Assembly (NCBI GenBank): GCA_965204375.1 | Contig: OZ241986.1 | Location: forward strand, 4,160,001-4,224,000 | Origin: Candidatus Latescibacterota bacterium | GTDB lineage: Bacteria > Latescibacterota > UBA2968 | Length of the DNA stretch: 64,000 nt | Direction: 5' to 3' | In this document: positions 83 to 36,719 of the stretch, piece after piece | Position numbering within the stretch: position 1 is the first letter of the stretch | How the letters are laid out: the number at the start of each line of letters is the position of its first letter | Translations under genes and position numbers: made by a program | Notes under the pieces: model-generated | Told to the model about the DNA's origin: nothing | Seen by the model: the letters and a program-made list of their open reading frames with translations, nothing else | Database searches by the model: none

Positions 83-128
83 CTTCACACTTCACACTTC
101 ACACTTCACACTTCACACTTCACACTTC
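83..128. repeat. (CTTCACA)~6.5 heptamer tandem repeat directly upstream of the ATG at 131
   Basis: Tandem CTTCACA units read directly; preceded by a degenerate REP-like GTATAGGGGCGAAA...TTTAGCCC. Confidence 0.95.
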
Positions 129-130
129 CC

Positions 131-1495
131 ATGATCTACCACCAACTCTTCGCCCAAATTGACCGCACCGTACGCGTTGGCGTCATCGGCACCGGACACT
201 ACGCCACAGCCCTCGTCACACAATCGCGCGTCGTCGATCAACTCCACGTCCCCGTCGTCTGCGACACAAACCCGGACGCAGCCCAAAATGCATATCATCA
301 CGCCGGCCTGGACACCGACAAAATCATCTTATGCGACACCACCCAACAGGCTGCCGAAGCCATAGAACAGGGCAAACACGTCATCCTCACCGACGCCATG
401 CAAATGATGGACCTGCCCCTCGACGTCATCGTAGAATCCACAGGCGTCCCGAGTGCAGGCGCGAAACACGGCATAGAAGCCATCCGACACGGCAAACACG
501 TCGCCATGGTATCCAAAGAAACCGACGTCACCGTCGGACCCATCCTCAAACACCACGCAGACAAAGCCGGACTCGTCTATACCGCTGTTGACGGCGACCA
601 GCACGGCCTGCTCATGGGCCTCGTACAATGGGCGCGCGGCCTGGGCCTCGAAGTACTCTGCGGAGGCAAATCACTGGACTCCGACCGCGTTTACGACCCG
701 CAAACCAACGCCATCGTCTGGTCCAAAGGCAAAATCCAGATCCCCGACGAACAGATATTCTCCGCCCAAAATCCCTCGGCACATATCGCACAACGCCGCC
801 AGATCATGGGCGAACTCGGCGCCATCGCCGGTTACGACGTCACCGAACTCACCATCGCCGCCAATGCCACCGGTCTCATCCCCGATACAGACACCCTGCA
901 CACCCCCGTAGTCCGCACCGTTGAAATACCCGAAGTCCTCGCACCCAAAGAAGACGGCGGCATCTTATCCCACCGCGGCGTCATCGACTGTGTCTCCTGC
1001 CTGCGCCAGGCAAACGAACCCGGCCTCGGCGGCGGCGTCTTCATCGTCGTCGCCTGTGAAAACGCCTACTCCCGCCACATCCTCACCACCAAAGGACTCA
1101 TCCCCAACAAAAAAGGCACCACAGCCCTCATCTACCGCCCCTACCACCTCTGCGGCGTCGAAACACCCATCACAACACTCGTCGCCGGCCTCTTAAACCT
1201 GCCCACGGGCACCACCGACTACCGCCCGTCCTTCGACGTTGTGGGCCGCGCAAAAGAACCCCTCAAAGCCGGCGACCGGATCGGCAACGACCACAGCAAA
1301 AACATCGAATACCTCATGCGCCCCGCGCTACCAGTCGCGCCCCACAACCCCCTCCCCTTTCACATGGCCAACGGCAATACGCTAAGTCAGGATGTCCCGG
1401 CTGGCGCATTCATCACTGCCAGCGCGATACAACCAGAAAACAACGACCCCCTCTGGACCCTTCGCAAAGAACAGGACGAGTATTTTATAAACTGA
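131..1495 (+). CDS. NAD(P)-dependent oxidoreductase, homoserine dehydrogenase-like, with C-terminal SAF domain
   Basis: Rossmann motif VRVGVIGTG; motifs GKHVAMVSKETDVTVGPIL, GDQHG, ANATGL, YRPYHLCGVE; SAF-like tail. Confidence 0.8.
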   Translation: MIYHQLFAQIDRTVRVGVIGTGHYATALVTQSRVVDQLHVPVVCDTNPDAAQNAYHHAGLDTDKIILCDTTQQAAEAIEQGKHVILTDAMQMMDLPLDVIVESTGVPSAGAKHGIEAIRHGKHVAMVSKETDVTVGPILKHHADKAGLVYTAVDGDQHGLLMGLVQWARGLGLEVLCGGKSLDSDRVYDPQTNAIVWSKGKIQIPDEQIFSAQNPSAHIAQRRQIMGELGAIAGYDVTELTIAANATGLIPDTDTLHTPVVRTVEIPEVLAPKEDGGILSHRGVIDCVSCLRQANEPGLGGGVFIVVACENAYSRHILTTKGLIPNKKGTTALIYRPYHLCGVETPITTLVAGLLNLPTGTTDYRPSFDVVGRAKEPLKAGDRIGNDHSKNIEYLMRPALPVAPHNPLPFHMANGNTLSQDVPAGAFITASAIQPENNDPLWTLRKEQDEYFIN

Positions 1496-1517
1496 TGTTA
1501 CGCATGTTTCGCGTGTC

Positions 1518-1614
1518 TGTCATGCTGAGCGGAGTGAAACGGAGTCGAAGCATCTTTTCCACCCGTGTTGGTAGGAGATTCTTCGCCTCCACTGCGTTAC
1601 GGCTCAGAATGACA
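1518..1614. repeat. Palindromic REP-like element TGTCATGCTGAGC...GCTCAGAATGACA
   Basis: Terminal inverted repeats with internal CGAAGCATCT/AGATTCTTCG arms. Confidence 0.75.
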
Positions 1615-1664
1615 GGCGCATTATGCATTATATTGTGCCCGTGCGTAACGTCAGTTATAAAATA

Positions 1665-1699
1665 AAAAAACGAGTACATCTTTGTAATGCACTCGTTTT
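1665..1699. terminator. Putative bidirectional intrinsic terminator between convergent genes
   Basis: AAAACGAGTACAT...ATGCACTCGTTTT hairpin with A/T tails. Confidence 0.55.
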
Positions 1700-1722
1700 C
1701 CTGCTAACATTATCCGATCTAT

Positions 1723-6828: not shown

Positions 6829-6952
6829 AGGCGAAAGATTTTTCGCCCCTACAATCGGGCAACCACGAGGGTTGCCCCTACGGTTGCTTCACCCTTCACG
6901 GCCCCTCTTCTTTATCTGCGTTCATCTGCGTTCATCTGCGGATCACACTTCC
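6829..6952. repeat. Composite repeat: REP doublet plus ATCTGCG(T)TC module
   Basis: GGCGAAAGATTTTTCGCCCCTAC-AATC-GGGCAACCACGAGGGTTGCCCCTAC also occurs at ~38785; the following 63-nt module is nearly identical to 32810-32872. Confidence 0.85.
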
Positions 6953-8518
6953 ATGACCGACCAACGCTTTGTCGCACTCATCATCCTTGACGGTTGGGGA
7001 TTAAACCCGCGCCGGGACCACAACGCCGTGGCCCTTGCCAGCACCCCGACAATGGACCGCATCTGGGCCAACTACGCCCACACCACCCTCAACACCTCCG
7101 GACGCGCAGTCGGCCTACCCGACGGACTCATGGGCAACTCCGAAGTCGGCCATCTCAACCTGGGCGCTGGGCGCACCGTCATGCAAGCCATGACCCAGAT
7201 CGACGACCGCATACGAGACGGCAGCCTGTACAAAAACGAAGCCTTAATCGCCGCCATAGACCGCATCAAAAACCACAACCGCAACCTCCACCTCATCGGC
7301 CTCGTCTCTGACGGCGGCGTACACTCATGGCCCGGGCACTACGAGGGCCTCATCAAAATGGCAGCCGAACGCGGCCTCCCCTCAGACCGCCTCTTCATCC
7401 ACGCCTTCACAGACGGACGCGACACACCGCCCCAAAGCGCAATCCACCGCATGCGCGAACTCCTCGCCATATTCAAAACCCACGGCATTGGCCGCGTCGC
7501 ATCCATATCCGGGCGGTATTACGCCATGGACCGCGACCACCGCTGGGAACGCACCCAAATAGCCTACGACCTCCTCACACAGGGCAAAGGCATCGCAGAA
7601 ACCGACCCCATCACAGCCATACAAAACGCCTACAACCGCGGCGAAACCGACGAATTCATCAAACCCATCGCCATCGCCGACAGCACAGGCAAAACCACCA
7701 TAAAAGACGGAGACAGCGTCATCTTCTTCAACTTCCGCGGCGACAGACCCCGGCAAATCACCCGCGCCTTTGCACTCAAAAACTTCGACGGCTTTCAACG
7801 CCACACCTGGCCCAACGTACACTTCACCACCCTCACCCGATACGAAGCCGACGTACCCGTCACGGGCATCGCCTATCCCCCCGACACCCTCTCGCAAAAC
7901 ATGCCCAACATCTGTGGATCGGTCATCGCCCGGGCCAACAAACGACAACTACGCATCGCAGAAACAGAAAAATACGCCCACGTCACCTTCTTCTTTAACG
8001 GCCAACAAGAAACGCCCTTTGACGGGGAAGAACGCATCCTCGTACCATCCCCCAAAGACGTCCCCACCTACGACCACAAACCCGAAATGAGCGCACCTGA
8101 AATCGCAGACCGATTTACAGAAGCCATCGCAACCAACCAATACGACGCTGCAATATGCAACTTCGCCAACCCCGACATGGTGGGCCACACCGGCATCCTC
8201 GAAGCTGCCATACACGCCGTCACCACCGTTGACACCTGCCTGGGCCGCGTCCTCAAAGCCATAGAAAAAGCAAACGGCGCAGCCATCGTCACCGCCGACC
8301 ACGGCAACGCCGAACAAATGATCCACTACGACACTGGCGAACCCCACACCGCACACACCACCAACCCCGTACCCTTTGTACTCGTTGACCCCACCTACAG
8401 GGGAAAACTCCGCGCTGGCGGCACCTTGCGCGACGTCGCCCCCACCCTGCTCTCCCTGCTCAACCTGCCAAAACCCGATGAAATGACTGGGGAAGATCTG
8501 AGACGAATAGACGAATAG
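6953..8518 (+). CDS. gpmI: 2,3-bisphosphoglycerate-independent phosphoglycerate mutase
   Basis: Motifs IILDGWG, GNSEVGH, DGRDT, GRYYAMDRD, ETEKYAHVTFF, NPDMVGHTG, TADHGNAE; start placed at ATG 6953. Confidence 0.97.
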   Translation: MTDQRFVALIILDGWGLNPRRDHNAVALASTPTMDRIWANYAHTTLNTSGRAVGLPDGLMGNSEVGHLNLGAGRTVMQAMTQIDDRIRDGSLYKNEALIAAIDRIKNHNRNLHLIGLVSDGGVHSWPGHYEGLIKMAAERGLPSDRLFIHAFTDGRDTPPQSAIHRMRELLAIFKTHGIGRVASISGRYYAMDRDHRWERTQIAYDLLTQGKGIAETDPITAIQNAYNRGETDEFIKPIAIADSTGKTTIKDGDSVIFFNFRGDRPRQITRAFALKNFDGFQRHTWPNVHFTTLTRYEADVPVTGIAYPPDTLSQNMPNICGSVIARANKRQLRIAETEKYAHVTFFFNGQQETPFDGEERILVPSPKDVPTYDHKPEMSAPEIADRFTEAIATNQYDAAICNFANPDMVGHTGILEAAIHAVTTVDTCLGRVLKAIEKANGAAIVTADHGNAEQMIHYDTGEPHTAHTTNPVPFVLVDPTYRGKLRAGGTLRDVAPTLLSLLNLPKPDEMTGEDLRRIDE

Positions 8519-8622
8519 ACGAATAGACGGGCGGGTTAAACTGGCCTGAGAAACGGCCAGTTGTACATCGCTCGAAACCCGCCTCTACGTTTGATTTTTC
8601 ATCTGCGTTCATCTGCGGATCA
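8501..8622. repeat. (AGACGAAT)3 + interrupted REP + ATCTGCG module between convergent genes
   Basis: The 8-mer supplies the gpmI stop; GGCGGGTT...AACCCGCCTCTAC encloses an inner CTGGCC/GGCCAG hairpin; ATCTGCGTTCATCTGCGGATCA overlaps the sulfatase stop. Confidence 0.8.
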
Positions 8623-10050: not shown

Positions 10051-10194
10051 TCTGAATCAGGATTTACAGGATTTAAGGATGAACAGGATAACATCAAAAG
10101 CAAAAGCAAAGGCGAAGATGACAAACAAAAACCTTCTGGATCGCGGCTCAAAAACATGCCGCGATGACGGGCGGGCACGGGGGCCCGCCCTTAC
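10051..10194. repeat. Composite repeat cassette: TCTGAATCAGGATT module + CTGGATCGCGGC..GCCGCGATGAC + REP
   Basis: Same module order at 23314 and 36302. Confidence 0.88.
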
Positions 10195-11509: not shown

Positions 11510-12835
11510 ATGAACGACCAACCAAACATCTTATTTATGCACTCGCACAACACCGGAACCTATATTGAACCTTACGGACACGCCGTACCAACGCCACACC
11601 TGCAGCAACTGGCAGAACAAGGCGTACTATTTCGGCGGGCGTATGCCACAGCCCCCACCTGTTCGCCCAGCAGAGCCAGCTTCTTAACCGGCATGTACCC
11701 CCATACCTGTGGCATGACAGGCCTTGCACACCGCGGCTTTGCCATGACGAATTACGACTGGCATGCAGCCCGCATCTTCAAGACACATGGCTATTTTACC
11801 GCAACCGCTGGCGTGGAACACACCGCACCGGACCTGGACACCATTGGATACCGCGAAATCCTCTCCGGACTGGACACAAATTACCCCGGACAGCCCAAAT
11901 GGATCGAACCCGCGGATGCCGTCGTAGAATTCTTAAAAAACGCCCCCCAACACCCCTTCTTCCTCAACCTCGGCTTAAACGAAACGCACCGACCATTTCA
12001 CAGTGCCGAACCCGACAAATACCCCGCAGAACGCGAACAATACTGCATTCCCCCCCGTCCCCTGCCCGACACACCGGAAACGCGCGCCGACACAGCCGAC
12101 TACAAAGCCTCTGCGCGCATCATGGACAACCACTACGGCAACGTACTCACAGCACTCGAAGAAACCGGCCTATCAGACAACACCCTCGTATTCTGCTTTG
12201 CCGATCACGGCCTGCAATTCCCGCGCAACATGTGCAACCTCACAGACCACGGCATCGGCGTGTACCTCATCATACGCGGACCCGGCTTTGAAGGCGGAAA
12301 AACCCTAAACGCGATGGTCAGCTTGATGGACCTCTTACCCACGGCATATCGCGCTGCCGGCATTGAAATACCCGACCACGTACAGGGAAAATCTCTACAT
12401 CCTCTGATAGACGAGGACCGCCACCGGGAAGAAATCTTTTCAGAAGTCTCTTATCACGCCGCGTATGAACCCATGCGAAGCATCCGCACGGAGCGATACA
12501 AATACATTCGGCGATACGACAACCGCGACAAACTCGTATTGCCCAACGTGGATGACACCCCCACAAAAGCCTTCTTACTCAACCAAAACTGGGAAAAATT
12601 GCCGCGAGATCAGGAAATGTTATACGATCTTATATTCGACCCCGATGAAACGCACAACATCATCGACCGGGCAGACATGGCACCTGTGCGAAAAGATCTG
12701 AGCCATCGATTGTACGCATGGATGAAAGAAACGCATGATCCCCTGTTGCCAGACGGACACGTCGCTGCGCCGGGTGGTTCTAAAGTCAACAACTCCGATG
12801 GCCGTTCGCCGAAAGAGGTACCGGAGGAAGTGTGA
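11510..12835 (+). CDS. Sulfatase (N-sulfoglucosamine sulfohydrolase-like)
   Basis: QPNILF, PTCSPSRASFLTGMYPH, ETHRPF, ADHG; AAGGA RBS. Confidence 0.9.
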   Translation: MNDQPNILFMHSHNTGTYIEPYGHAVPTPHLQQLAEQGVLFRRAYATAPTCSPSRASFLTGMYPHTCGMTGLAHRGFAMTNYDWHAARIFKTHGYFTATAGVEHTAPDLDTIGYREILSGLDTNYPGQPKWIEPADAVVEFLKNAPQHPFFLNLGLNETHRPFHSAEPDKYPAEREQYCIPPRPLPDTPETRADTADYKASARIMDNHYGNVLTALEETGLSDNTLVFCFADHGLQFPRNMCNLTDHGIGVYLIIRGPGFEGGKTLNAMVSLMDLLPTAYRAAGIEIPDHVQGKSLHPLIDEDRHREEIFSEVSYHAAYEPMRSIRTERYKYIRRYDNRDKLVLPNVDDTPTKAFLLNQNWEKLPRDQEMLYDLIFDPDETHNIIDRADMAPVRKDLSHRLYAWMKETHDPLLPDGHVAAPGGSKVNNSDGRSPKEVPEEV

Positions 12836-13101
12836 AGGAGGAAGTGTGAAGGAGGAAGTGTGAAGGAGGAAGTGTGAAGGAGGAAGTGTGAAGGAGGAAG
12901 TGTGAAGTGTGAAGTGTGAAGGAGGAAGTGTGAAGGAGGAAGTGTGAAGTGTGAAGTGTGAAGGAGGAAGTGTGAAGGAGGAAGTGTGAAGGAGGAAGTG
13001 TGAAGGAGGAAGTGTGAAGGAGGAAGTGTGAAGGAGGAAGTGTGAAGGAGCACCAGCCTCTGGGAGTTGGGCGGGGCCTTCTCACTTCTCACTTCTAACT
13101 T
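12823..13101. repeat. Heptamer-arm element in inverted orientation: (GGAGGAA/GTGTGAA)n ~225 nt, core, (CTTCTCA)n
   Basis: Core GCACCAGCCTCTGGGAGTTGGGCGGGGCCTT is the reverse complement of the cores at ~25897 and ~27817. Confidence 0.92.
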
Positions 13102-23318: not shown

Positions 23319-23516
23319 ATCAGGATTCTCAGGATTTAAGGATGAACAGGATGAAAGGCAAAAAGCGAAAGGCAAAAGGCGAAAGGCGTCTGAATCAGGA
23401 TTCTCAGGATTTAAGGATGAACAGGATGAAAGGCAAAAAGCGAAAGGCAAAATCAAAACCTCTGGATCGCGGCTTACACCCTGCCGCGATGACAAGTGCG
23501 CTCATCACGCCCCTAC
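23314..23516. repeat. Composite repeat cassette with 75-bp tandem duplication
   Basis: TCTGAATCAGGATTCTCAGGATTTAAGGATGAACAGGATGAA at 23314 and 23389, GGCAAAA/GCGAAAG heptamers, CTGGATCGCGGC..GCCGCGATGAC, ...GCCCCTAC. Confidence 0.9.
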
Positions 23517-25248: not shown

Positions 25249-25881
25249 ATGCCCGGCGTCATATTCTGGGATGTCGATACCCAATACGACTTCATCATGC
25301 CCGACGGCAAACTCTACGTCACCGCATCGGAAAAGCGCTTGCCGAACCTCAAAAAACTCACAGACCATGCGAGACAACGGGGCATCCCCATCTACGGCTC
25401 GGTTGACAACCACCAGATAACCGACCCCGAAATCTCCGACAACCCGGACTTTCTGGAAACCTTTCCGCCCCACTGCATCGCCGGCACAGAAGGACAAAAA
25501 AAAGTACCCGAAACCCAACCGCAAAACCCCCTCTGGATCGACCCGGACGCCCCGGGCGACCTCATCAGCCGGGTACAAAAACACCGCGGAGAAATCATCT
25601 TTCGCAAACAGCGCTTCGACGTCTTCACCAACCCCAACGTCGAACCTGTACTCAACGCCATCAAACCCGACCGCATCGTCCTCTACGGCGTAGCCCTCGA
25701 CGTATGCAACGCCTATGCCATCAACGGCTTCTTAAACCGCAACACAGCGCCTATCCAGCTCGTCCTGGACGCCACACAAGCCATCGACCCCGAACGCGGC
25801 GACCGCATGGTAGATAACTGGCAACAACAGGGCGTCGAAATTGTATCCACAGATAAAATCATAAAGGCAAGTGAGAAGTAA
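25249..25881 (+). CDS. Nicotinamidase / isochorismatase family cysteine hydrolase
   Basis: DVDTQYDF, D.H, FPPHC..GTEG, RK, GVALDVC; AAGGAG RBS. Confidence 0.88.
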   Translation: MPGVIFWDVDTQYDFIMPDGKLYVTASEKRLPNLKKLTDHARQRGIPIYGSVDNHQITDPEISDNPDFLETFPPHCIAGTEGQKKVPETQPQNPLWIDPDAPGDLISRVQKHRGEIIFRKQRFDVFTNPNVEPVLNAIKPDRIVLYGVALDVCNAYAINGFLNRNTAPIQLVLDATQAIDPERGDRMVDNWQQQGVEIVSTDKIIKASEK

Positions 25882-25990
25882 GAAGTAAGAAGTGAGAAGG
25901 CCCCGCTCCACCACCCAAAAGCTGGTGCCTTATCCCACTTCACACTTCACACTTCACACTTCACACTTCACACTTCACACTTCACACTTT
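25869..25990. repeat. Heptamer-arm element: (AAGTRAG)4, core, (CTTCACA)7
   Basis: Core AAGGCCCCGCTCCACCACCCAAAAGCTGGTGC; left arm supplies the upstream stop, right arm abuts the ATG at 25994. Confidence 0.92.
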
Positions 25991-25993
25991 ACT

Positions 25994-27778
25994 ATGAACG
26001 TCTTCCTTCGCCTCATCACCTATATCCGCCCTTATTTGGGCCGCGTGAGCATCGGCATCGGCGCCACCCTCCTCATCATCGGCCTCGACGCCGTACAACC
26101 CCTGCTCATGCGCGACGTCATCGACGACATCTTAACCCCCTACTTCACAGAAGGGCGTTACATCGGCGGCGACTTCGCCGACACAAAAATCGCAGCCGAC
26201 TTCGACCTGCTCCAATTCTACGCCCTGCTCCTCCTCGGCGTCTATATCCTCCGCACCATCTTCAGCTTCATCAACCGCTACCTCCTCAGCCGAACGGGAC
26301 AGGACATCCTCTTCAGCCTCCGCGTCCAGGTCTATGACCACCTCCAGCACCTGGGCCTGCGCTTTTACAACGACCGCAGCACAGGCGAACTCATGTCGCG
26401 CGTAACCGCCGACGTCGAATCCCTTCAAAACACCGTCACAGACACCCTGGAACGCGTACTCATCGACATCGCAACCGTCATCATCTTCGGCAGCATCCTC
26501 TTTGCCCTCAGCTTTGAACTCGCCCTCATCACCCTGTTGCCCATGCCCATATACAGCATCCTCATCATCTTCTACAACCGCACCATACGCCCCTATTACA
26601 CCATGGCGCGCGAACGCATCGCCGACATCAGCGCCCTCTTGCAAGACAACCTCTCCGGCATCCGCGTCATCAAATGCTTTGCCCGCGAAGGCCACGAACT
26701 CTCTCGCTTCACCCAAAAATGCAGAGCCTTCCTCACCATCAGCATCACCATCATCAAAACCCGCGTCGCCTTCTTCCCCCTCACCCGATTCATCATCTCC
26801 ATGGGCCCCCTCCTCGTCCTCCTCTTTGGCGGGCGACAAATCATCTCGGGCGACCTCACCATCGGCACCCTCTTCGCCTTTCAAAGCTACCTCTGGCAAT
26901 TCTACAGACCCGTAGAAAGCCTCACCCGCATCAACGACACCATCGTGCGCGCCTCTGCCTCAGCGCGTCGCATCTTTGAAATCCTGGACACCCAACCCGA
27001 AATAAAAGACACCCCCAACGCGCGCCCCTTTGACCGCCTGAACGGCAGCGTTGAATTTCGAAACGTCACCTTTGCCTACGAACACGGCCCCCCCGTCCTC
27101 CAGGGCGTATCCCTCAGCGCACAGTCCGGCCAACTCATCGGCCTCGTTGGACCCAGCGGCGCGGGCAAAACCACCATCATCAACCTCATCTGCCGCTTCT
27201 ACGACCCCGATTCTGGGACCGTGAGCGTTGACGGCCATGACCTCAAAAACATGCAACGCGCATCCCTGCGCAGCCAAATCGGCATGGTCTTACAAGAACC
27301 CTTCCTCTTCAACGGAACCATCCGCGAAAACATCGCTTATGGCAAACTCAACGCCACCGAAACCGACATCATCAACGCCGCCATGATGGCCAACGCGCAC
27401 GACTTCGTCTGCGGATTCCCGGACGCTTATGACACCCACATAGGCGAACGGGGCGTGCGCTTATCCGGCGGTGAAAAACAGCGCATCTCCATCGCCCGCG
27501 CCATCCTCAACGACCCGCGCATCCTCATCTTAGACGAAGCCACATCTTCTGTTGACACCGAAACCGAAATGCTCATCCAAAAAGCACTCGAACGCCTCAT
27601 GGAAGGCCGCACCACCTTTGCGATCGCCCATCGCCTATCCACCGTGCGCCGCGCCGACTGCCTCTACGTCATCGACCGCGGCAAAATCGTCGAATACGGC
27701 ACACACACCCAGCTACTCGCCAGCGACGGCCTCTACGCCCGCCTGTGCGACATGCAATTCGCGTTGGAAGAAGCGTGA
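25994..27778 (+). CDS. ABC transporter, fused permease/ATP-binding (MsbA-like exporter)
   Basis: TM domain, GPSGAGKT, LSGGEKQR, ILDEATSSVD, AHRLST. Confidence 0.95.
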   Translation: MNVFLRLITYIRPYLGRVSIGIGATLLIIGLDAVQPLLMRDVIDDILTPYFTEGRYIGGDFADTKIAADFDLLQFYALLLLGVYILRTIFSFINRYLLSRTGQDILFSLRVQVYDHLQHLGLRFYNDRSTGELMSRVTADVESLQNTVTDTLERVLIDIATVIIFGSILFALSFELALITLLPMPIYSILIIFYNRTIRPYYTMARERIADISALLQDNLSGIRVIKCFAREGHELSRFTQKCRAFLTISITIIKTRVAFFPLTRFIISMGPLLVLLFGGRQIISGDLTIGTLFAFQSYLWQFYRPVESLTRINDTIVRASASARRIFEILDTQPEIKDTPNARPFDRLNGSVEFRNVTFAYEHGPPVLQGVSLSAQSGQLIGLVGPSGAGKTTIINLICRFYDPDSGTVSVDGHDLKNMQRASLRSQIGMVLQEPFLFNGTIRENIAYGKLNATETDIINAAMMANAHDFVCGFPDAYDTHIGERGVRLSGGEKQRISIARAILNDPRILILDEATSSVDTETEMLIQKALERLMEGRTTFAIAHRLSTVRRADCLYVIDRGKIVEYGTHTQLLASDGLYARLCDMQFALEEA

Positions 27779-27780
27779 TG

Positions 27781-27891
27781 AAGTAAGAAGTAAGAAGTGA
27801 GAAGTAAGAAGTAAGAAGGCCCGCCCCAACCACCCAAAGGCTGGTACTTCCTCCTTCCTCCTTCACACTTCAACCTTCACACTTCACACTT
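27781..27891. repeat. Heptamer-arm element: (AAGTRAG)5, core, (CTTCACA/CTTCCTC)n
   Basis: Core AAGGCCCGCCCCAACCACCCAAAGGCTGGTAC. Confidence 0.92.
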
Positions 27892-28581: not shown

Positions 28582-28839
28582 TCAATAATGATAACGAGCC
28601 TGTAGAAAATTAATGCGCTCATGGTCAACGTGATAGACAATGCGATGTTCGCGTGTCAAACGACGAGACCAGGTATTGCGGTCAAAGTATTTGAGTGGTT
28701 CTGGTTTGCCAATCCCTTTGAAAGGATCTCGCAGGATAGCTTCCACAAGTGTCAAGACGCGAAGGGCTATCTTGCGATCAGTTTGAACCCAATAGTGCAG
28801 GTCTGCACGAAATTCTGGATGAAAAACAGCATCGCGCAT
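28582..28839 (-). CDS. yoeB: Txe/YoeB family toxin
   Basis: DLHYW, RDPFKGIGKPEPLK, WSRRLTREHRIVY, QARYHY. Confidence 0.95.
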   Translation of the reverse strand: MRDAVFHPEFRADLHYWVQTDRKIALRVLTLVEAILRDPFKGIGKPEPLKYFDRNTWSRRLTREHRIVYHVDHERINFLQARYHY

Positions 28840-28841: not shown

Positions 28842-29129
28842 TTATTCCAGCCCAACCTCTCGACGCAAGTCATCAACGGATTGAGCGGGTTCTGTTCCGG
28901 CTTTGGCTCGGTTTAGAGCAGTTGCCAATCGTTCCGCATTTTTAGGTGAGCTGAGAAGATGAGCGGTTTCTATAAGGCTGGAAAGCTCGGACACAGAAAT
29001 CAGAGCGACATCTTCATGCCCCCGACGAGTGATAATAACGTAATCATTTTCATCCGTCACATCTTTGCAAAGACTGGCAAGCCTGGCGCGTGCCTGAGTA
29101 CAGGTAAATGTTCTGGTCATATATTTCAT
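28842..29129 (-). CDS. yefM: Phd/YefM family antitoxin
   Basis: TQARARLA, VIITRRG, SLIETAHLLSSPKNAERL. Confidence 0.93.
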   Translation of the reverse strand: MKYMTRTFTCTQARARLASLCKDVTDENDYVIITRRGHEDVALISVSELSSLIETAHLLSSPKNAERLATALNRAKAGTEPAQSVDDLRREVGLE

Positions 29130-29171
29130 AATAATATCCAGCGAAAATCCCTACTTCTCACTTCCTACTTC

Positions 29172-30629
29172 TCACTTCCCCCTTCTCAACCCCATCATCT
29201 TCGACGCGATCTCGACCTCCTCGGCAAATGCCTCTGCCGCCTCGTCATACGTATCAAACGGATCGCGGAAACTCAAATGGTATTCATTTTCCAAATACAC
29301 CGAATCCCAATCCACAATATACCGCACCCGATTTTGCGACAACGTCTTCACCATCGCCGCCCGCGCCTTTGCCCGCGTATCAGCCGGAGGCGTTCCACAA
29401 GCCTCTTCAACGCGATCATCGGTCAACACGCGCTTCATCTTACCCTGTTGCTCCAGATCGAAATACAACCCGCGATTGGGATCGATATTGTGATACTCCA
29501 GATCCAAACTCTGCAACCACGGATCGTCCCAACCCAAATTCTCCGACTCGCGAAACGCATCCAACAACCACTTCTTCGCCACCCAGTCCACACGATCTGT
29601 CAACTGCATCGGATCGGATTCCAGATCATCAAGTGTGCGCTCCCACTCAGCCAGCACCCAATCCGACTCCTCATCCAGACCTCTCAAATGGCGCTGCGAC
29701 AAATCCAGATAAACGCGCTGAATATCAATCGCCGAAATAGACCGCCCATTCTGCCGGTCCAGAATCCACTTATGTGTTGGATCGCGCGAAATCTCCTTCA
29801 ACGCCCATACCGGATCACCCAACCCCAGATCCTGGGGAAAAATCTTCCGCTCTAAGAGATTCAGCACCATCGCAGTCGTGCCAACCTTCAGCGCCGTCGC
29901 ATACTCCGACATATTTGAATCGCCCACCAGAAGGTGCAAACGGCGGTACTTGCTGTGATCGGCCAGCGGTTCATCTCGCGTATTGATAATCGCGCGAGAA
30001 AACTGAATCCATTGATAAATCTCTGTCACAATATGATCCGCACGCTGAGAAATCTGGAAATTCACCGGATCTTCCCGGTTGTCGGCATCGCGCGCACTGT
30101 GCCCATAATAATAAAAACTGTCGTCATAACTGCCCACGCGACCTGCACCGCAAAAAATTTGGCGCGTCACCAAAAACGGCAACAGCGCGGGAATGACAAC
30201 CGTTGAAAACGGCACATTGCGCCTGACCAGATAATTTTCGTGACAGCCAAACGTCGCGCCCGTATAGTGATCGATATTATTCTTCAAAAACGACGCTTCT
30301 TTAGCCAACCCCAGCGCGTGCAATGCCCGATGCAAAATGAGATCGCCAGCCCGATCAAAAGCCACAATATCCCACAACCCCATACACTCCGGCGTCGCGT
30401 ATTCCAAATGCCCCATATCGATATAAACCCGCCCGGCATTAAACAAAAACCCCCCATTGCCCGGGGGTTCATCCCGTCCGCGATAGTGAATATCCACAAT
30501 CCCGATACGGTCAACGTGAAAAATATGATCCTTAACCTTCACCGAAATGGTATCGGGACTCACAAAACCCTCGTGCTCGGGAGCCAAACACCCATACTCG
30601 GTTTCTATGCCAAAAATGCGATCTCTCAT
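29172..30629 (-). CDS. pafA: Pup/UBact-protein ligase PafA
   Basis: RIFGIETEYG, FLFNAGRVYIDMGHLEYATPEC, KNN, GCHENYL, SQRADHI, INTRDEP, RRLHLLVGDSNMSE; no Dop loop. Confidence 0.9.
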   Translation of the reverse strand: MRDRIFGIETEYGCLAPEHEGFVSPDTISVKVKDHIFHVDRIGIVDIHYRGRDEPPGNGGFLFNAGRVYIDMGHLEYATPECMGLWDIVAFDRAGDLILHRALHALGLAKEASFLKNNIDHYTGATFGCHENYLVRRNVPFSTVVIPALLPFLVTRQIFCGAGRVGSYDDSFYYYGHSARDADNREDPVNFQISQRADHIVTEIYQWIQFSRAIINTRDEPLADHSKYRRLHLLVGDSNMSEYATALKVGTTAMVLNLLERKIFPQDLGLGDPVWALKEISRDPTHKWILDRQNGRSISAIDIQRVYLDLSQRHLRGLDEESDWVLAEWERTLDDLESDPMQLTDRVDWVAKKWLLDAFRESENLGWDDPWLQSLDLEYHNIDPNRGLYFDLEQQGKMKRVLTDDRVEEACGTPPADTRAKARAAMVKTLSQNRVRYIVDWDSVYLENEYHLSFRDPFDTYDEAAEAFAEEVEIASKMMGLRRGK

Positions 30630-30647: not shown

Positions 30648-30721
30648 ATGGGCGAGGCATGCCTCGCCCCTACAATGAACCACCATCCGCAACAACGGGC
30701 AGGTTTAAAACCTGCCCCTAC
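30648..30721. repeat. REP-like hairpin doublet
   Basis: GGGCGAGGCATGCCTCGCCCCTAC and GGGCAGGTTTAAAACCTGCCCCTAC; the second GTAG overlaps the prcA TAG stop. Confidence 0.85.
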
Positions 30722-31509
30722 AATATAAACGGCGCCAGCGCGGGCGCAATTTCTTCTGCATCGACATTGCGGTACTTGTTTTTACCCACCCGCGACCGCT
30801 CGAGCACCACCGCCTCCACCTCCAGATCCACCAACTCCGTCACAAGCACATCAACCACATCGACCTCCCCAGCCACCTGATCCAACGCGTCGGCATCGGT
30901 GGGCACCTCGTCCATCTTCCCAATCCATCGCCCCATCGCCCATGCGCGAAGCGCGGCACCTGCGGCATCAGACAGAGACAACGCCTCCGTATCCAAACCC
31001 GACAACTCGCGCACCATCATCACATCCGCCTCCACAACGCCCCCCACAGCAGCACACCTCTCGTGCCGGTGAAACGCGCCATCGTAATCCACAGAATAAA
31101 AAATGTGCGCGCCCTCCTGCCCATCCAACTCCGCGAGAAGCACCCGCGCCAAAAAAGGAGACCGCACCACATCGTCAAACCCCGCCTTAATCGCAGGACC
31201 GAGACCAAAATACACAATCTGACGCAGTGTCACATCGTCTTCCGAATAATTAAACCCAATCGAATGCGCCATATCAATCGCAGCCTGCCGCAGATTCTCG
31301 ATATCCGTCGAATGCCCAATCCCCGCGAGCAAGATGCGATCGTACACCTCAAACACCTTTTGCTGACTCTGCGACAGCGTCAACAACAAAATCCCATCCT
31401 CGTAACCCACCCCCACGACCGGACTACCCTGCCGGATCTGATCCTCAATATAATCTCGCCGATTCGCAACCGCCTCTGCCCAGCGATACGGCTCATCAGA
31501 CAACATCAT
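30718..31509 (-). CDS. prcA: 20S proteasome alpha subunit
   Basis: RRDYIEDQIRQGSPVV, KVFEVYDRI..AGIG, DIENLR..A, YSEDDVT; operon context. Confidence 0.88.
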   Translation of the reverse strand: MMLSDEPYRWAEAVANRRDYIEDQIRQGSPVVGVGYEDGILLLTLSQSQQKVFEVYDRILLAGIGHSTDIENLRQAAIDMAHSIGFNYSEDDVTLRQIVYFGLGPAIKAGFDDVVRSPFLARVLLAELDGQEGAHIFYSVDYDGAFHRHERCAAVGGVVEADVMMVRELSGLDTEALSLSDAAGAALRAWAMGRWIGKMDEVPTDADALDQVAGEVDVVDVLVTELVDLEVEAVVLERSRVGKNKYRNVDAEEIAPALAPFIL

Positions 31510-31694
31510 GCGCGTCCCGCCTCCTCCCAATTAAACTTTCTCAATCTTCGTATCCTTCGTGTCCTTCGTGTCCTTCGTGGATACTGAATCATGCGCGTCC
31601 CGCCTCCTCCCAATTAAACCTTTTCAATCTTCGTATCCTTCGTGTCCTTCGTGTCCTTCGTGGATACTGAATCATGCGCGTCCCGCCGCCTCCC
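31505..31694. repeat. 83-bp tandem repeat (2.3 units) at the prcB-prcA junction
   Basis: ATCATGCGCGTCCCGCC(T/G)CCTCCC at 31505, 31588 and 31671, separated by two 59-nt inserts containing (CTTCGTGTC)n. Confidence 0.95.
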
Positions 31695-32478: not shown

Positions 32479-32670
32479 CTACTCGCCTGTACGCTGGCGA
32501 TAACGCCGCGCCTGATTGGGATCAACGCGCCGCATGCGCCGCAGCAAATCGCGTGTATCTGGCCGCTCCACCTTCGGGCGCGCGGGGCCACCATCGCCAT
32601 CATCACCCGGACCAGGTCCGCCCGGATCGACCGGCTTCGTCCGTCGCTCAAACTGTAAGACCTTATCCAT
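32479..32670 (-). CDS. ubact: Ubiquitin-like modifier UBact (Pup analogue)
   Basis: 63 aa, disordered G/P/D-rich N-terminus, C-terminal LLRRMRRVDPNQARRYRQRTGE with the R[T/S]G[E/Q] end; lies between dop and prcB; AAGGAGG RBS. Confidence 0.92.
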   Translation of the reverse strand: MDKVLQFERRTKPVDPGGPGPGDDGDGGPARPKVERPDTRDLLRRMRRVDPNQARRYRQRTGE

Positions 32671-32692
32671 CTACGGCCTCCTTAAAAAAATG

Positions 32693-32872
32693 TCTGAATC
32701 AGGATTCTCAGGATTATAGGATGTGCAGGATGAAAAACTATCTGAATCAGGATTTACAGGATTATAGGATGAACAGGATGAAAAACAAAATCAAAACCTG
32801 CTGGATCTACACCCTTCACAGCCTCTCTTTTTTATCTGCGTCCATCTGCGTCCATCTGCGGATCACACTTCC
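32693..32872. repeat. Composite repeat cassette between dop and ubact
   Basis: TCTGAATCAGGATT module twice (32693, 32741) plus an ATCTGCGTCC module that overlaps the dop stop. Confidence 0.9.
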
Positions 32873-34386
32873 TTCAACGCCTCTAAAAAACTCTCTAACG
32901 TCTCCGAATTATCCAGCACCTCATTATAACGCGCTACCCGCCCCTCATCCACCAATAATTTCATATCCACGGCATGCTGGCGGCCATTGCGCTTAAACAC
33001 AATGCGATCCCAGTTAATCGACGACACATAATCGCCGAACTTCTCCAAACTGCGCCCTCGAAAATACGCCCGCGTACCCGAAGGCGGCTCCGACATTGCC
33101 GCTGCCACCTCATCATCGCCCACCAGACGCACCATCTGCCCCTGCGACTCCAGCAAATAATACAACCCCGCATCCCGATCCACATTGCTATATTCCAGAT
33201 CCTGGCTCTGCATCCAGAACAAATCATCGGGATTGTCCCACGCCAGATTCTCCGCCTCGCAAAAACTATCGATCAACCACTTCTTCGTCACCCAATCGCA
33301 CACCCCCACCAGATCCATCGGATCGCGGCTCAACTTCTCCAGTACATCTTCCCACGCCGACAACACCCAATCCGTCTCTCGATCCCGCCCGGCAAACTCG
33401 CGCCGTGCCAGAGCCAAAAACGCATCCTGAATCTCAACCGCGGGAATTAGGCGATGACCGGGACCCTCGACCTCAACCAGCCACGCATGCGACTGATCCC
33501 GGGCGATATTCTTCATCGCCGCAATCGGATCCTTCAGCCGATAATCGGGCAAACAATCCGCCTCAATCAAATCGATCACCAGCGCCGTTGACCCCACCTT
33601 GAGCGCCGTCATATACTCCGACATATTGGCATCGCCCACAATCACGTGCAACCGGCGATATTGCGCCGCATCTGCGTGGGGTTCATCGCGCGTATTCACA
33701 ACCGGACGCTTGTGCATCGTATCCACACTCGCGATCACCTCGAAAAACTCCGCGCGCTGCGACAACTGATAAATCGGTGCGCGATCCTCCCGCTCGACAC
33801 CCACCTTGCCAGCCCCGCAAAAAATCTGCCGCGTGGGGAAAAACAGCAACAACCCCTGTAATATACGCTCGAAAGGCACCGAACGATCCATCAAATAATT
33901 CTCGTGACACCCATAGCTATGCCCTTCGAAATCCGTATTGTTCTTATACATCCGCACAACGCCCTGATCGAGCATCTCCGTGCGCCGCTGCGCGCAAATA
34001 TCCACAATGCGCTCCCCCGCCTTATCCTGCGCCACAAGCTCGAACAAACTTATGCACTCACCCGTTGAATACTCCGGATGCGTGTGATCGTTGTAAAACC
34101 GGGACCCATTGTAAATAATCAAATCGCTCTTCAATTCTTTAAACGGAATTTTCCGCTTGCGGTCCTGTTGCATAAGCTCCTTTTCATCGGCATCATTCAA
34201 CAGATTTTTAACCTCAAACCCCCGCTCATCCCGACGGGGATTCTCCAGCCGATAATCCCACAACGGAACAAACTTGCCCTGCTGATAGCATCGAATCAAC
34301 TGCATCGACTCTTCGACCACATCGACCTTATCCACCTCGTCAATCGTGATCCCATATTCTGTTTCTATACCGAATAAGCGCGTCAT
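32863..34386 (-). CDS. dop: Pup/UBact deamidase-depupylase Dop
   Basis: FGIETEYGI, Dop loop WDYRLENPRRDERGF, NGSRFYNDHTHPEYS, YKNNTD..SYGCHENYL, NTRDEPHAD. Confidence 0.9.
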   Translation of the reverse strand: MTRLFGIETEYGITIDEVDKVDVVEESMQLIRCYQQGKFVPLWDYRLENPRRDERGFEVKNLLNDADEKELMQQDRKRKIPFKELKSDLIIYNGSRFYNDHTHPEYSTGECISLFELVAQDKAGERIVDICAQRRTEMLDQGVVRMYKNNTDFEGHSYGCHENYLMDRSVPFERILQGLLLFFPTRQIFCGAGKVGVEREDRAPIYQLSQRAEFFEVIASVDTMHKRPVVNTRDEPHADAAQYRRLHVIVGDANMSEYMTALKVGSTALVIDLIEADCLPDYRLKDPIAAMKNIARDQSHAWLVEVEGPGHRLIPAVEIQDAFLALARREFAGRDRETDWVLSAWEDVLEKLSRDPMDLVGVCDWVTKKWLIDSFCEAENLAWDNPDDLFWMQSQDLEYSNVDRDAGLYYLLESQGQMVRLVGDDEVAAAMSEPPSGTRAYFRGRSLEKFGDYVSSINWDRIVFKRNGRQHAVDMKLLVDEGRVARYNEVLDNSETLESFLEALKEV

Positions 34387-34387
34387 A

Positions 34388-34557
34388 GAAGTGTGAAGGG
34401 TGAAGGGTGAAGGGTGAAGGGTGAAGGGTGAAGGGTGAAGGGTGAAGGGTGAAGGGTGAAGGGTGAAATAGCGGTCAGCAGTCAGCGGTCAGGATGATGA
34501 GGCAATGGGGCGGCGTTGGGTGGATTTCTTACTTCTTACTTCTCACTTCTTACTTCA
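34388..34557. repeat. Heptamer-arm element variant: (GTGAAGG)~10, AGCGGTCAGCAGTCAGC, core, (CTTCTYA)4
   Basis: Fills the arc-dop junction from the arc stop to the dop ATG. Confidence 0.88.
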
Positions 34558-36261
34558 CACCACGCCATGCCTTGAGGTGCGTCGCTCTCGCCTGGGCTTA
34601 ATCGGTACTGCGCGCACCACATTTTCGGGATCGTAATCCAGCAACTTCAACCAATCCTCTGTATTATCCGTCGGCGGGAAAATTTCATTCTCGCTGTACT
34701 CGGTCTCTATCCCCGCGAGCAAATCGCCAAAACCAATCCCCTCTTCTGTGCCCGACGCAATACACCGCTTAATCGCAATCTCCTTCGCGCGCTGCACAAT
34801 AGACTCGAGAATAGCCCCGCTACACAGATCCCCGCGGGTCAACACCTCCTTGCGACCGCTTCTGAGCAACACCTCTAAAAAGCGCGTATCATCGCGCCTG
34901 GCATATATCTCAGCTATCGTGCGCGCCGCAAGATCGTCAACCGCTGCTTGCACATCGCCGTCGTGCGCGTTTAACGCATCCTCTGACAGCGGCAAATCAG
35001 CCGTCAAATAAATACCCAAAATCTCGCGCGCGGCATCCTCATCCGGACGAAGCACCTTGATCTTGCGATCAATACGCCCCGGGCGCAAAATTGCCGGATC
35101 GATCAAATCTGGACGATTGGACGTCAAAATAATCACCACATCTTGCAGGGAATCGATCCCATCCATCTCGGAGCAGAACATCGGCACAACCGTATTTGAA
35201 ATATTGTGCGACCGAATCGCCCGCCGCGTACCTAAGACCGACTCTGCCTCGTCGATAAACACCACCGGCAAAAACCCCTCGCGCCGCTTCTCGCGCGCCT
35301 GAGAAAAAATCTCGCGCACCTTGCGCTCGGACTCTCCCAACCACATATTCAAAATCTCAGGCCCCTTAATATGCATAAAACACGCCTTGAGATTCAGGCC
35401 GTCTTCCTGCACCTGCTTCTCCAGATTGTACGCCGTCGCCTTCCCAATCAGCGTCTTGCCGCACCCCGGAGGACCGTACAACAAAAACCCCTTGGGCGTA
35501 CTGTACTGAAACCGCTTAAACAACTCCGGATGCAACACCGGCATCTCAATCGTATCTTTAATCGCCTGAATCGCATCCTTTTGCCCGCCGATCTTCTCCC
35601 ACGGCAAATCGGGAACTTCCTCCAGATAAAAATCCTTAACCTCGGAATGCGGCATCTTCTCCAGCGCCACGCGGAAATGCGGATCGATCCGAACCTCTTC
35701 GCCCGACTTCAAAGCCTCGGCCTCCAGATCGGCCCCCCGCAGCAAAATATGCGTCTGCGAACCGTGTTCTTGCCCCACCTGCAAGCGCCCATCGTCCAGC
35801 ACATCGACAATTTTACCCACCGTACCCGACGGAGACTCGCCCATCTCGCCCACCACGGCAAACGCCTCATTCACCAGCACCCGCGTCCCCACCTTCAAAC
35901 CGCGTTCATCCAACCGCCCATCCACATTGGCGTAATACTCCGCCCCACCCACCGTAATGTACGCGACGCCATTTTCCGGTGCCGACAGCAACGTTCCCAC
36001 CCGATTGGCTGGTGCCGTCACCTTCTCCAGCGCCCCTTCCAACTCCACAATCGTGCGCCTCGCCTCCTCAAACGTAATCTCATCTTCCTGAAGCTGCCGG
36101 CGCAACTGGTACAACAGGGGCCGCCGTCGATCCGTCTCATCCATCGTCATCAAAATCTGATCGATAATCGACAGCGACTGAAATGTATGCTGCATATCCA
36201 CATAGTCCTGAAGAAAATCTTCAGGTGACTTTCTCTGACGATCAGAATCGTTGGTATTGAT
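34555..36261 (-). CDS. arc: Proteasome-associated AAA ATPase ARC/Mpa
   Basis: Coiled coil + OB domains, LYGPPGCGKT, KGPEILN.WLGESER, FIDEAES, SNRPDLIDPAILRPGRID; start uncertain (ATC 36261 after GGAGG, or 36201/36195). Confidence 0.92.
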   Translation of the reverse strand: MNTNDSDRQRKSPEDFLQDYVDMQHTFQSLSIIDQILMTMDETDRRRPLLYQLRRQLQEDEITFEEARRTIVELEGALEKVTAPANRVGTLLSAPENGVAYITVGGAEYYANVDGRLDERGLKVGTRVLVNEAFAVVGEMGESPSGTVGKIVDVLDDGRLQVGQEHGSQTHILLRGADLEAEALKSGEEVRIDPHFRVALEKMPHSEVKDFYLEEVPDLPWEKIGGQKDAIQAIKDTIEMPVLHPELFKRFQYSTPKGFLLYGPPGCGKTLIGKATAYNLEKQVQEDGLNLKACFMHIKGPEILNMWLGESERKVREIFSQAREKRREGFLPVVFIDEAESVLGTRRAIRSHNISNTVVPMFCSEMDGIDSLQDVVIILTSNRPDLIDPAILRPGRIDRKIKVLRPDEDAAREILGIYLTADLPLSEDALNAHDGDVQAAVDDLAARTIAEIYARRDDTRFLEVLLRSGRKEVLTRGDLCSGAILESIVQRAKEIAIKRCIASGTEEGIGFGDLLAGIETEYSENEIFPPTDNTEDWLKLLDYDPENVVRAVPIKPRRERRTSRHGVV

Positions 36262-36273
36262 AACTCACCTCCG

Positions 36274-36719
36274 GATCAGGATTCGCAGGATGAAACCCCT
36301 GTCTGAATCAGGATTCTCAGGATTTAAGGATGAACAGGATGAAAATCAAAAGCGAACACGGATTAAACGGATTAAAAGATGGACACAGATTAAAGGCAAA
36401 ATCTTCTGGATCGCGGCTTAAAGCCTGCCGCGATGACGGGTACCTTTAATGTCTCTCTTCCTACTTCACACTTCACACTTCACACTTCACACTTCACACT
36501 TCACACTTCACACTTCACACTTCACACTTCACACTTCACACTTCACACTTCACACTTCACACTTCACACTTCACACTTCACACTTCACACTTCACACTTC
36601 ACACTTCACAGCCCCTCTTCTTCATCTGCGTCCATCTGCGTCATCTGCGGATCTCACGTCAAGAATACCATATCTCAAAACCCGTGTCAAGGACGGACGG
36701 GTTGGAAACCCGCCCCTAC
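36274..36719. repeat. Largest composite repeat cassette, including (CTTCACA)21
   Basis: TCTGAATCAGG module, CGGATTAAA module, CTGGATCGCGGC..GATGAC, heptamer run 36464-36610, ATCTGCG module, REP ...GCCCCTAC. Confidence 0.92.

Follow-up and report, generated by a model that had tools for sequence, protein, structure and literature searches.

The short tandemly repeated repetitive (STRR) heptamers of cyanobacteria are intergenic repeats of period 7, kindred to some of the arrays considered here, and eukaryotic foldback transposons and the minisatellite-bearing MITEs (miniature inverted-repeat transposable elements) of bacteria such as P. gingivalis are non-coding elements with inverted arms of tandem short repeats, variable in length. 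Intergenic heptamer arrays with the unit TAACTGA, located a short way upstream of start codons, are known from Beggiatoaceae, cyanobacteria and Bacteroidetes, with 169 direct sets and one indirect set (PMC4679880). Prokaryotic repetitive extragenic palindromes (REPs) are grouped into two superfamilies (Di Nocera 2013, PMC3733652): GTAG-tagged REPs, in which an unpaired GTAG stands directly 5' of a palindrome of 20-40 nucleotides (nt), and CGTC-tagged REPs, which have a CGTC, TGTC or CCTC head, a stem of 8-9 bp starting with AT, a short unpaired CCA tail and a loop of 4-5 nt, or of other lengths in some families. The CGTC class, which includes dRS3 of Neisseria and RPE-4 and RPE-6 of Rickettsia, is without an associated transposase, and REPtrons, in which the gene for a REP-associated tyrosine transposase (RAYT) is flanked by REPs, can be lost by deletion (PMC3733652). 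REPs are mostly found at most 20 bp from the 3' ends of genes, where GTAG termini often supply the TAG stop codon (PMC3733652), and mosaic clusters of REPs have already been described as bacterial interspersed mosaic elements (BIMEs) (PMC3333891). Here, we describe the repeat cassettes that sit at gene boundaries in a 64,000-nt stretch of a Candidatus Latescibacterota genome (contig OZ241986.1, positions 4,160,001 to 4,224,000; hereafter the window), compare them with these systems and weigh how they may have arisen.

The window (G000:C1:4160001-4224000) is part of a genome (G000) of 6.34 Mb, assembled as a single contig with 50.8% GC. An original prediction, made from the letters of the window, had distinguished at least five module types, named A to D and heptamer runs (E), and taken them for a candidate undescribed system, mobile or regulatory, that inserts at gene junctions. 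We consider the cassettes to be, probably, BIME-like mosaics of small (30-55 nt) non-autonomous elements of the REP type and of microsatellite-like arrays, which would have been spread, selected and slipped as outlined below. As REP/BIME-type repeats the modules are of a known kind, and the word undescribed holds in part: D fits the GTAG-tagged REPs and B, except for its loop, the CGTC-tagged REPs as characterized in the survey text (PMC3733652), and a foldback element, for which no published match was found in the literature searched, is left. What appears to be new here is the lineage, this foldback heptamer element, the very fast, junction-centred exchange of cassettes and the lack of a RAYT.

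Hairpins were catalogued as intergenic, GC-rich structures with a perfect stem of at least 7 bp (874 in total), and the four bases 5' of the stem were tabulated on both strands. The commonest heads were AAAA (117), GTAG (63), CTGG (60), GTAC (39), CGTC (37) and TGTC (26). Those headed AAAA are ordinary terminators read from the other strand, with stems that are all different, and the repeat hairpins differ from these 117 because they have no T-tails. Three hairpin repeat families were recognized: D with a GTAG head, B with a CGTC or TGTC head and a CCA tail, and F with a GTAC head, the stem AACTGGCC and an 8-nt loop. The D head stands on 63 intergenic perfect-stem hairpins, or 72 if an offset of 1 nt is allowed; the stems are mostly 9 bp long, often with a 2-nt loop, and belong to several subfamilies, including GGGCGAGGC (24 copies) and GGGCGAAAA (13 copies). 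B is represented by 69 NGTC-headed hairpins, with an 8-bp stem in 56 of them (ATCGCGGC in 31, ATTGCGGC in 19) and a CCAG tail in 55, and the third stem pair covaries (C-G 28, T-A 19, mismatched 3). The B loop measures 9-10 nt in 43 of the 69 hairpins, 35-39 nt in ten, which hold nested inserts, and 4 nt in three. Nesting within the loops of other hairpins also occurs, with F in D (8539-8566), with a CCCCTGC hairpin in B and with B in the core of an 8-mer element.

The features that D shares with GTAG-tagged REPs are the unpaired GTAG head, the short GC-rich hairpin, the many stem subfamilies, the proximity to 3' gene ends and the use of the TAG of GTAG as stop codon (PMC3733652). Mosaic clustering and a copy number that varies per locus are likewise common to the cassettes and to the GTAG REPs and BIMEs of E. 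coli, Pseudomonas and Stenotrophomonas (PMC3733652, PMC3333891), and a BIME-like order recurs in the window, A-B-D at 10051-10194 and 23314-23516 and A-B at 36302-36437; the alternating REP and inverted REP pairs of E. coli BIMEs are, however, not the rule. D stems are mostly perfect with 2-nt loops, whereas the E. coli RAYT requires a stem mismatch (PMC3333891), and unlike in GTAG REP systems no cognate RAYT accompanies D, either in G000 or next to those hairpins of relatives that were examined. The phylum Latescibacterota does not seem to be included in the survey of Di Nocera 2013, the additional files of which may list more phyla or families (PMC3733652). In the case of B, the head, the 8-bp stem starting with AT, the CCA tail and the absence of an associated transposase all match the CGTC class, and, as with the CGTC repeats of Neisseria, the units are interleaved with other repeats in mosaic intergenic regions (PMC3733652). 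In contrast to the head-to-head dimers of CGTC REPs (PMC3733652), B units are mostly single and arranged head-to-tail with D.

Heptamer runs form a pair of arms on a single foldback element, on either side of a conserved core; the original prediction had missed this connection. In this element (H), an array (GAAGTGT)n is followed by a conserved core of about 30 nt, close to GAAGCACCAGCCTTTGGGYGGTTGGGYGG, and then by an array (CTTCTYA)m. Complete copies number 53 in the genome, and their two arms comprise 2-31 and 2-14 units, respectively. A purine array is followed by a pyrimidine array within 120 nt in 50 of 91 cases, and the reverse order was seen once. The elements lie between genes in either orientation, form a long imperfect hairpin (z -4.9 to -5.5) and, where their cores of 28-38 nt are identical, have unrelated flanks. 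In the closest species (G016), a core of the H kind has 8-mer arms. Among the other arrays of this genome inverted pairing was found for none of 59 10-mer and three of 28 8-mer arrays, and a foldback structure for the C...A cassette was rejected, as its folding is no more stable than that of shuffled sequence (z +1.08). Compared with foldback transposons and MITEs, H is far smaller, has no known autonomous partner and shows no terminal inverted repeats accompanied by a target duplication of fixed length. Heptamer arms inverted about a core were not encountered in the literature searched, and nothing on these elements was found in literature combining Latescibacteria or foldback with repeats. 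The H arrays and the TAACTGA repeats are both intergenic with period 7, often located a few nt from a start codon, present in up to tens of copies, patchily distributed and without a known mechanism, but H differs in its unit sequence, in the strict order of its inverted pairs around a core and in also abutting stop codons (PMC4679880).

The modules are not local to the window, and a scan of the whole 6.34 Mb, as the original prediction had suggested, showed that all five types recur across it. Genome-wide, there are 26 exact cores of A, 51 copies of B by regular expression and 104 C arrays. Tandem Repeats Finder places 164 of 183 period-7 arrays, 62 of 72 period-8 arrays and 101 of 137 period-10 arrays in intergenic DNA, and arrays of period 12 are mostly coding (23 of 171 intergenic); at least five array families (periods 7, 8, 9, 9 and 10) can be distinguished. 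About 8.4% of intergenic bases have at least three partners in other intergenic regions, and this share climbs to 13-19% at 3.75-4.5 Mb, the region that contains the window. Each module of 30-55 nt has dozens of matches of 90-100% elsewhere in the genome, and no whole cassette has a full-length twin there.

The module families are specific to one Latescibacterota genus. B is present in 17 of 20 further genomes of this genus, with 1-277 copies apiece, and was not found in any of 147 genomes representing 48 additional genera of the phylum. The three genomes of the genus in which B was not found are G011, G017 and G032, and the highest count is that of G015. Runs of three heptamers were recorded for 10 of 18 congeners, usually with low counts, and for none of 12 genomes of the sister family; heptamer arrays are abundant in G000 and G015. 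Copy numbers indicate bursts in particular lineages: one GTAG subfamily has 449 copies in G017 and four in G000. Since the genome is a single-contig metagenome-assembled genome (MAG) from long reads, and tandem arrays are error-prone in assembly, an artefact of assembly or polishing might be suspected; with the module families present in more than 17 independently assembled genomes, fragmented multi-contig and single-chromosome alike, and parts of the stretch present, according to a run list, in public runs from 13 studies, we regard this as extremely improbable.

The modules behave as dispersed, non-autonomous DNA of fast turnover that is gained, lost and swapped between species, in agreement with the original prediction, and this can be followed at individual junctions. 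Public loci that encode the Dop-like protein at 87-97% identity all belong to MAGs of Candidatus Latescibacterota or uncultured Latescibacteria. Sister species carry the empty alleles that mobility of the modules had led the original prediction to look for. The ATGA overlap of prcB and prcA is uninterrupted in 17 of 17 relatives and broken solely in G000, by an insert of 2 x 83 nt. The arc/dop junction is empty (-1 to 4 nt) in six of 18 relative loci (L005, L006, L007, L008, L010 and L056) and holds C-D-B, heptamer or other cassettes in others, and the prcA/pafA junction, filled in the window at 30650..30721, is empty (8-15 nt) in L004, L006, L008, L056, L013-L015 and L018. The Dop-like gene of L005, and that of the more distant L013-L015 and L018, continues until it adjoins or overlaps the start of ubact, whereas in filled dop/ubact alleles a TGA that the module brings truncates it immediately behind a GTG codon. 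At dop/ubact and arc/dop of L009, L011 and L012, B hairpins and their linkers are tandemly amplified 3-4 times within one junction, so that local amplification adds to insertion.

A comparison with G016 covered 400 kb, collinear and inverted, with 182 syntenic junctions. Junction lengths agreed within 10 nt at 96 of these; a difference above 25 nt was seen at 78, with G000 having the longer junction in 33 cases and G016 in 45. Length changes exceeding 40 nt affected 22% of junctions with a spacer of at most 10 nt and 60% of those with a spacer above 200 nt; expressed per 100 nt of spacer, this amounts to 6.8 versus 0.18 changes, a difference of about 38-fold in favour of tight junctions. Modules were present in both species at 30 junctions, in G000 only at 14, in G016 only at 17 and in neither at 121, and just one of the 30 doubly occupied junctions has the same module set. 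Gain, loss and exchange of modules take place between species at about 94% protein identity, and the excess of shared occupancy (30 versus about 11 expected by chance, 44 x 47 / 182), combined with differing content, marks occupied junctions as hot spots of content replacement.

These observations bear on an alternative in which no dedicated mobility exists, arrays arise by slippage in place, modules are copied by ectopic gene conversion or template switching at short shared motifs, and occupied junctions keep exchanging. It would account for the variable copy number of arrays (2-31 units in this genome alone and, for C, 3 units in one species against 13 in another), for the 29 doubly occupied junctions with differing content, which resemble replacement at filled sites, for the excess of shared occupancy, for two duplications of 24 nt typical of template switching or tandem duplication, and for the lack of a candidate enzyme in the genome. 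It accounts poorly for first insertions into ATGA overlaps, which hold no repeat to recombine with, for the sharp module boundaries and the precise nesting of hairpins in the loops of others, for the strict polarity of the foldback element, for GTAG and CGTC heads conserved outside the stems, and for the 449 copies of one subfamily in the single species G017. We therefore view it as possible but rather less likely than spread of the modules as discrete elements.

Within junctions the modules are not randomly placed, as the original prediction had anticipated, and lie next to stop codons far above chance. When position is scored within the free range of each intergenic region, 29 of 32 C copies, 83 of 95 purine heptamer arms and 11 of 13 A copies fall into the fifth nearest the upstream stop (Kolmogorov-Smirnov p 5e-7 to 2e-50), whereas reverse-oriented A is found at the far end and D, B and F in the interior, which gives cassettes with array edges and hairpin centres. 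The genome-wide set of 5159 genes comes from our own crude codon-usage caller with approximate starts, and distances to start codons are for that reason less certain than those to stops; the check with Pfam and NCBIfam concerns genes of the window only. Exact distances peak where the TGA or TAG of the module is itself the stop: 17 of 38 stop-adjacent C copies lie at -2 and nine D copies genome-wide exactly at -4, and both prcA and the gene ending at 36716 terminate in the tag. The stop codons read from the window by the original prediction are correct, namely those of the sulfatases at 8620-10038 (WEG*), 11510-12835 (EEV*) and 21888-23318 (AI*, within the TCTGA of A), of the genes at 25249-25881 (SEK*), 29172-30629 (GK*) and 32863-34386 (EV*), of prcA (CTA of CTAC, 30718-30720) and of gpmI, within an 8-mer array; A also abuts the ribosome-binding site (RBS) at the sulfatase 8620-10038 and at ubact. 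That cassettes supply stops is nevertheless partly built in, because arrays of period 7 or 8 carry TGA, TAA or TAG in all three frames and an open reading frame (ORF) entering them must end there, and since the supply of stops is a published property of the REP class (PMC3733652), the most striking point of the original prediction was already known. Tight junctions are hit well beyond what their length would predict, which may reflect either targeted insertion at gene junctions or filtering by selection.

Placement of this kind might also be expected if the modules were functional RNA or DNA signals under selection, with the hairpins acting as stabilizers of mRNA 3' ends or as insulators between cistrons. 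The arrays lie a few nt from starts and stops; pyrimidine arrays stand where a Shine-Dalgarno sequence would be expected, and none is visible at the starts 131, 25994 and 27896; the covariation in the B stem indicates that the hairpin itself is preserved, and the missing T-tails set the repeat hairpins apart from ordinary terminators. A role of this type has been proposed for heptamers (MacGregor 2015, PMC4679880). With one of 30 shared junctions conserved in content, many orthologous junctions empty, modules in both orientations relative to genes and no Rfam family matched (0 matches at gathering score in the 64 kb window), a signal function as the cause of the cassettes appears quite unlikely.

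For the favoured BIME-like origin we envisage the following model. Each module would spread as a unit by hairpin-dependent cutting and insertion of single strands at the replication fork, as proposed for REPs and for elements of the IS200/IS605 group of insertion sequences (IS), usually without target duplication and with a preference for existing modules and stop-proximal DNA. Selection would then retain insertions that close the upstream ORF at once and spare the downstream RBS, array length would drift through slippage, and effects on mRNA, such as 3'-end stabilization or the uncoupling of cistrons, would be a by-product. The mover would be an enzyme other than a recognizable RAYT. The absence of target duplication from 18 of 20 events at tight junctions, in an ungapped automated test, fits a mechanism of the IS200 or REP kind, and target duplication as a general feature was rejected on these counts (2 of 20). 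Inspection by eye adds a repeat of 8-9 nt at 4157050 as well as partial ones at arc/dop and prcA/pafA, which the ungapped test misses. Both detected duplications, of 24 nt, preserve the downstream RBS and the stop/start overlap. A classical MITE was rejected as well, with duplication in two of 20 events and no association of the IS families of the genome with modules. Of the 72 GTAG heads, 62 are on the G-rich strand, and 24 of the 26 A copies are on its C-rich counterpart; the orientation of modules reverses from one flank of the origin region to the other, whereas genes are without strand bias (2670 of 5159 on the leading, G-rich strand). This bias resembles the preference of IS200/IS605 elements for the lagging-strand template (PMC3333891).

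The original prediction had noted that the window lacks a transposase, which is correct, and the genome lacks a RAYT. RAYT as the mover was rejected for G000, with no match to PF01797, and is not supported in relatives, in which the five Y1 genes classified are of the IS200 type and the six loci examined have no GTAG hairpins alongside. Y1 matches occur in 13 of 21 genomes of the genus, several of them adjoining a TnpB-sized ORF. An Rpn-like PD-(D/E)XK family was considered as mover on the basis of proximity and rejected, since a module within 300 nt of four of 16 copies is too weak against a background of 11%; for the other families the numbers are one of 11 (AAA-ATPase-like), one of seven (TnpB), one of seven (IS256) and none of 17 (DDE_Tnp_1_4), and nothing ties two reverse transcriptases and one IS110-family gene of the genome to the modules. 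Inverted pairs of GTAG hairpins in G017 are found only 2.9-3.9 kb apart. These families have some features of their own. TnpB (IS605 OrfB) is present in 3-5 near-identical copies (623094-624227, 4094887-4096020, 4860063-4861196 and others) though no Y1 TnpA exists; the Rpn-like putative recombination-promoting nucleases number about 16 members (e.g. 4396647-4397540), with a weak match to TIGR01784; and the AAA-ATPase-like family, likewise an expanded family of predicted nucleases, comprises about ten members of some 525 amino acids (aa) plus fragments, of which the copy in the window (5771-6649) matches PF09820.

Several points weigh against the proposed origin and mechanism. The B loop of 9-10 nt, which can hold a nested hairpin, deviates from the 4-5 nt of published CGTC families (PMC3733652). 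A Y1/RAYT gene is absent from G000 (PF01797, 0 matches), and G017, with its 449 copies of a GTAG subfamily, has no Y1 match either; five Y1 genes of the genus are classified by NCBIfam as IS200/IS605 TnpA with 131-148 bits (cutoff 55) and score 25-35 bits as RAYT (cutoff 80), and a GTAG hairpin stands beside the Y1 gene in none of six loci examined. The two 24-nt duplications are not made by an IS200-like mechanism. The strand bias tracks the local GC skew and could be compositional for G-rich arrays, and for one GTAG subfamily of G017 no strand pattern is seen, with 38 forward and 41 reverse copies interleaved. Selection on spacers could mimic junction targeting, and no insertion is observed directly, with most length differences unpolarized.

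The skew has peculiarities of its own. It reaches |0.2| per 100 kb genome-wide and about -0.25 in the window, despite the near-absent strand bias of genes. The cumulative-skew minimum lies at 5.19 Mb and dnaA at 4.67 Mb, and from 4.8 to 5.2 Mb the sign is 'wrong', perhaps owing to an inversion close to the origin. As few modules lie between 4.67 and 5.19 Mb, skew and replication direction are not separable as the cue for orientation. A more far-reaching version of the BIME-like origin is that an unrecognized, RAYT-independent enzyme moves REP-type hairpins, including those of the CGTC kind, as well as foldback elements, acting on single-stranded hairpins at the fork and inserting by stops and into hairpin loops; we hold such a junction-seeking activity to be unlikely, and mention it because it would explain the spread of transposase-less CGTC REPs and provide a tractable case of repeat-cassette exchange between operon genes.

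The modules of the window were recovered, A to C at the sites reported by the original prediction: A at all six (10051, 23314, 23389, 32693, 32741 and 36302, all on the + strand), B at 10136, 23462 and 36406, C at 6914, 8601, 32834 and 36624, D hairpins ending CC(C/T)TAC at 6830, 6857, 10169, 30650, 30697, about 36695, 38787 and 41005, and heptamer runs (E) at 83, 12827, 25872/25938, 27777/27847, 29151, 34385/34529 and 36457. Following the window from its start, the first cassette (58..131, +) consists of a degenerate D-like hairpin (58-83) and a (CTTCACA)x6.6 array whose end lies 2 nt ahead of an ATG (131), and the orthologous junction of G016 measures just 22 nt and has no array. At 6830..6944 (+), two D hairpins ending CCCCTAC (6830-6852 and 6857-6881) are followed by a leader and the 10-mer array of C (6914-6944), which stops 8 nt upstream of the gpmI ATG (6953). 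The next cassette (8501..8622, +) is located between two convergent genes: an 8-mer array, (AGACGAAT)x3.6, covers the gpmI stop, a D-type hairpin (8527-8590) holds an F hairpin with a GTAC head (8539-8566) in its loop, and a C array (8601-8621) follows, with the sulfatase stop being the TCA at 8620-8622 of this array. The corresponding junction of G016 has a different cassette (B). At 10051..10194 (+), A (10051-10091), a CGTC-type B hairpin (10136-10168) and D (10169-10194) are placed between the stop of a SpoU-family gene and the RBS of a sulfatase, which A abuts; the counterpart in G016 retains B and D and is without A. The element at 12827..13098 (+) is an H with a purine arm of 31 units (GAAGTGT/GAAGGAG), the core GCACCAGCCTCTGGGAGTTGGGCGGGGC and a 3-unit arm of CTTCTCA; the TGA of a sulfatase lies within its first units, and an A-B cassette takes its place in G016. 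A third sulfatase ends in the first TCTGA of the A tandem that opens the cassette at 23314..23516 (+), composed of two A copies (75-nt tandem), B (23462-23493) and a degenerate D ending CCCCTAC.

Two H elements on the - strand follow. The first (25872..25989), in reverse orientation, fills the whole junction from the gene end at 25881 to the ATG of an ABC transporter gene at 25994, and its fold, a long imperfect hairpin, has z -5.5 on one strand and -4.9 on the other; the second (27777..27891) fills the junction of ABC transporter and DUF1854 genes, which in G016 contains a C-like/B/D cassette. A purine heptamer array (29151..29188, -) extends across the stop (GK*) of the PafA-like gene. Directly downstream of this gene, with the array in between, are a YefM-like antitoxin gene (28842-29129, -) and a YoeB/Txe toxin gene (28582-28839), homologues of which are absent from this position in 17 of 18 relatives compared. 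In the proteasome operon, two D hairpins (30650-30673 and 30697-30721) constitute the cassette at 30650..30721 (+), and the prcA stop is the CTA at 30718-30720 of the second. The insert between prcB and prcA (31505..31670, +) consists of two 83-nt units, each with a 9-mer array (CTTCGTGTC) and a duplicate of some 21-24 nt of the prcB 3' end that includes the RBS and the ATGA overlap. At 32693..32865 (+), two A copies (32693-32733 and 32741-32781), a leader and a C array (32834-32864) are found; the stop of the Dop-like gene is the TCA at 32863-32865, and A abuts the UBact RBS. An H element (34385..34559, +) fills the arc/dop junction from the arc TGA to the dop ATG. The largest cassette (36270..36719, +) is made up of a degenerate A, A (36302-36342), B (36406-36437), (CTTCACA)x21 (36457-36610), C (36624-36653) and a D hairpin, of which the CTA at 36716-36718 is the stop of the upstream gene. 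Beyond the range covered by the original prediction there is a D hairpin at 38787..38813 (+), and a further one, tagged GTAG/CTAC on both sides, lies at 41001..41028 (strand unassigned).

The gene content reported by the original prediction is backed by Pfam and NCBIfam: the window encodes gpmI, three sulfatases and a proteasome/UBact operon in which arc is followed by the Dop-like gene (32863-34386), ubact (32479-32664), prcB, prcA and the PafA-like gene (29172-30629). The names dop and pafA agree with NCBIfam, and the name nicotinamidase for the gene at 25249-25881 is not borne out, its sole match being a weak amidohydrolase. At 38837-51952 (-), three successive genes encode large proteins of the secreted type (702, 1255 and 2359 aa), the first of which carries a type IX secretion system (T9SS) C-terminal sorting domain; the 3' ends of these genes are mutually 75-81% identical, and the largest gene has repeats of about 340 nt in its interior. 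At 1496-1722, between convergent genes, there is a different repeat, with long inverted ends (CTGTCATGCTGAG ... CTCAGAATGACAGGC); its end motifs occur 5-9 times in the genome, and it may be a MITE unrelated to the modules.

The spread of REPs is still poorly understood, and the CGTC class is without any known enzyme. The genus described here offers about 20 mostly closed genomes at about 94% protein identity, with a turnover high enough to polarize single events. Fast turnover and clean empty sites, even in ATGA overlaps of a conserved proteasome operon, make the rules of insertion, and the enzyme, discoverable by comparative genomics. The foldback heptamer element connects intergenic heptamer arrays with palindromic repeats, phenomena hitherto reported apart from each other. 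Finally, as the modules rewrite C-termini and operon spacing, the 3' ends of orthologues in these bacteria differ for reasons unrelated to protein function.

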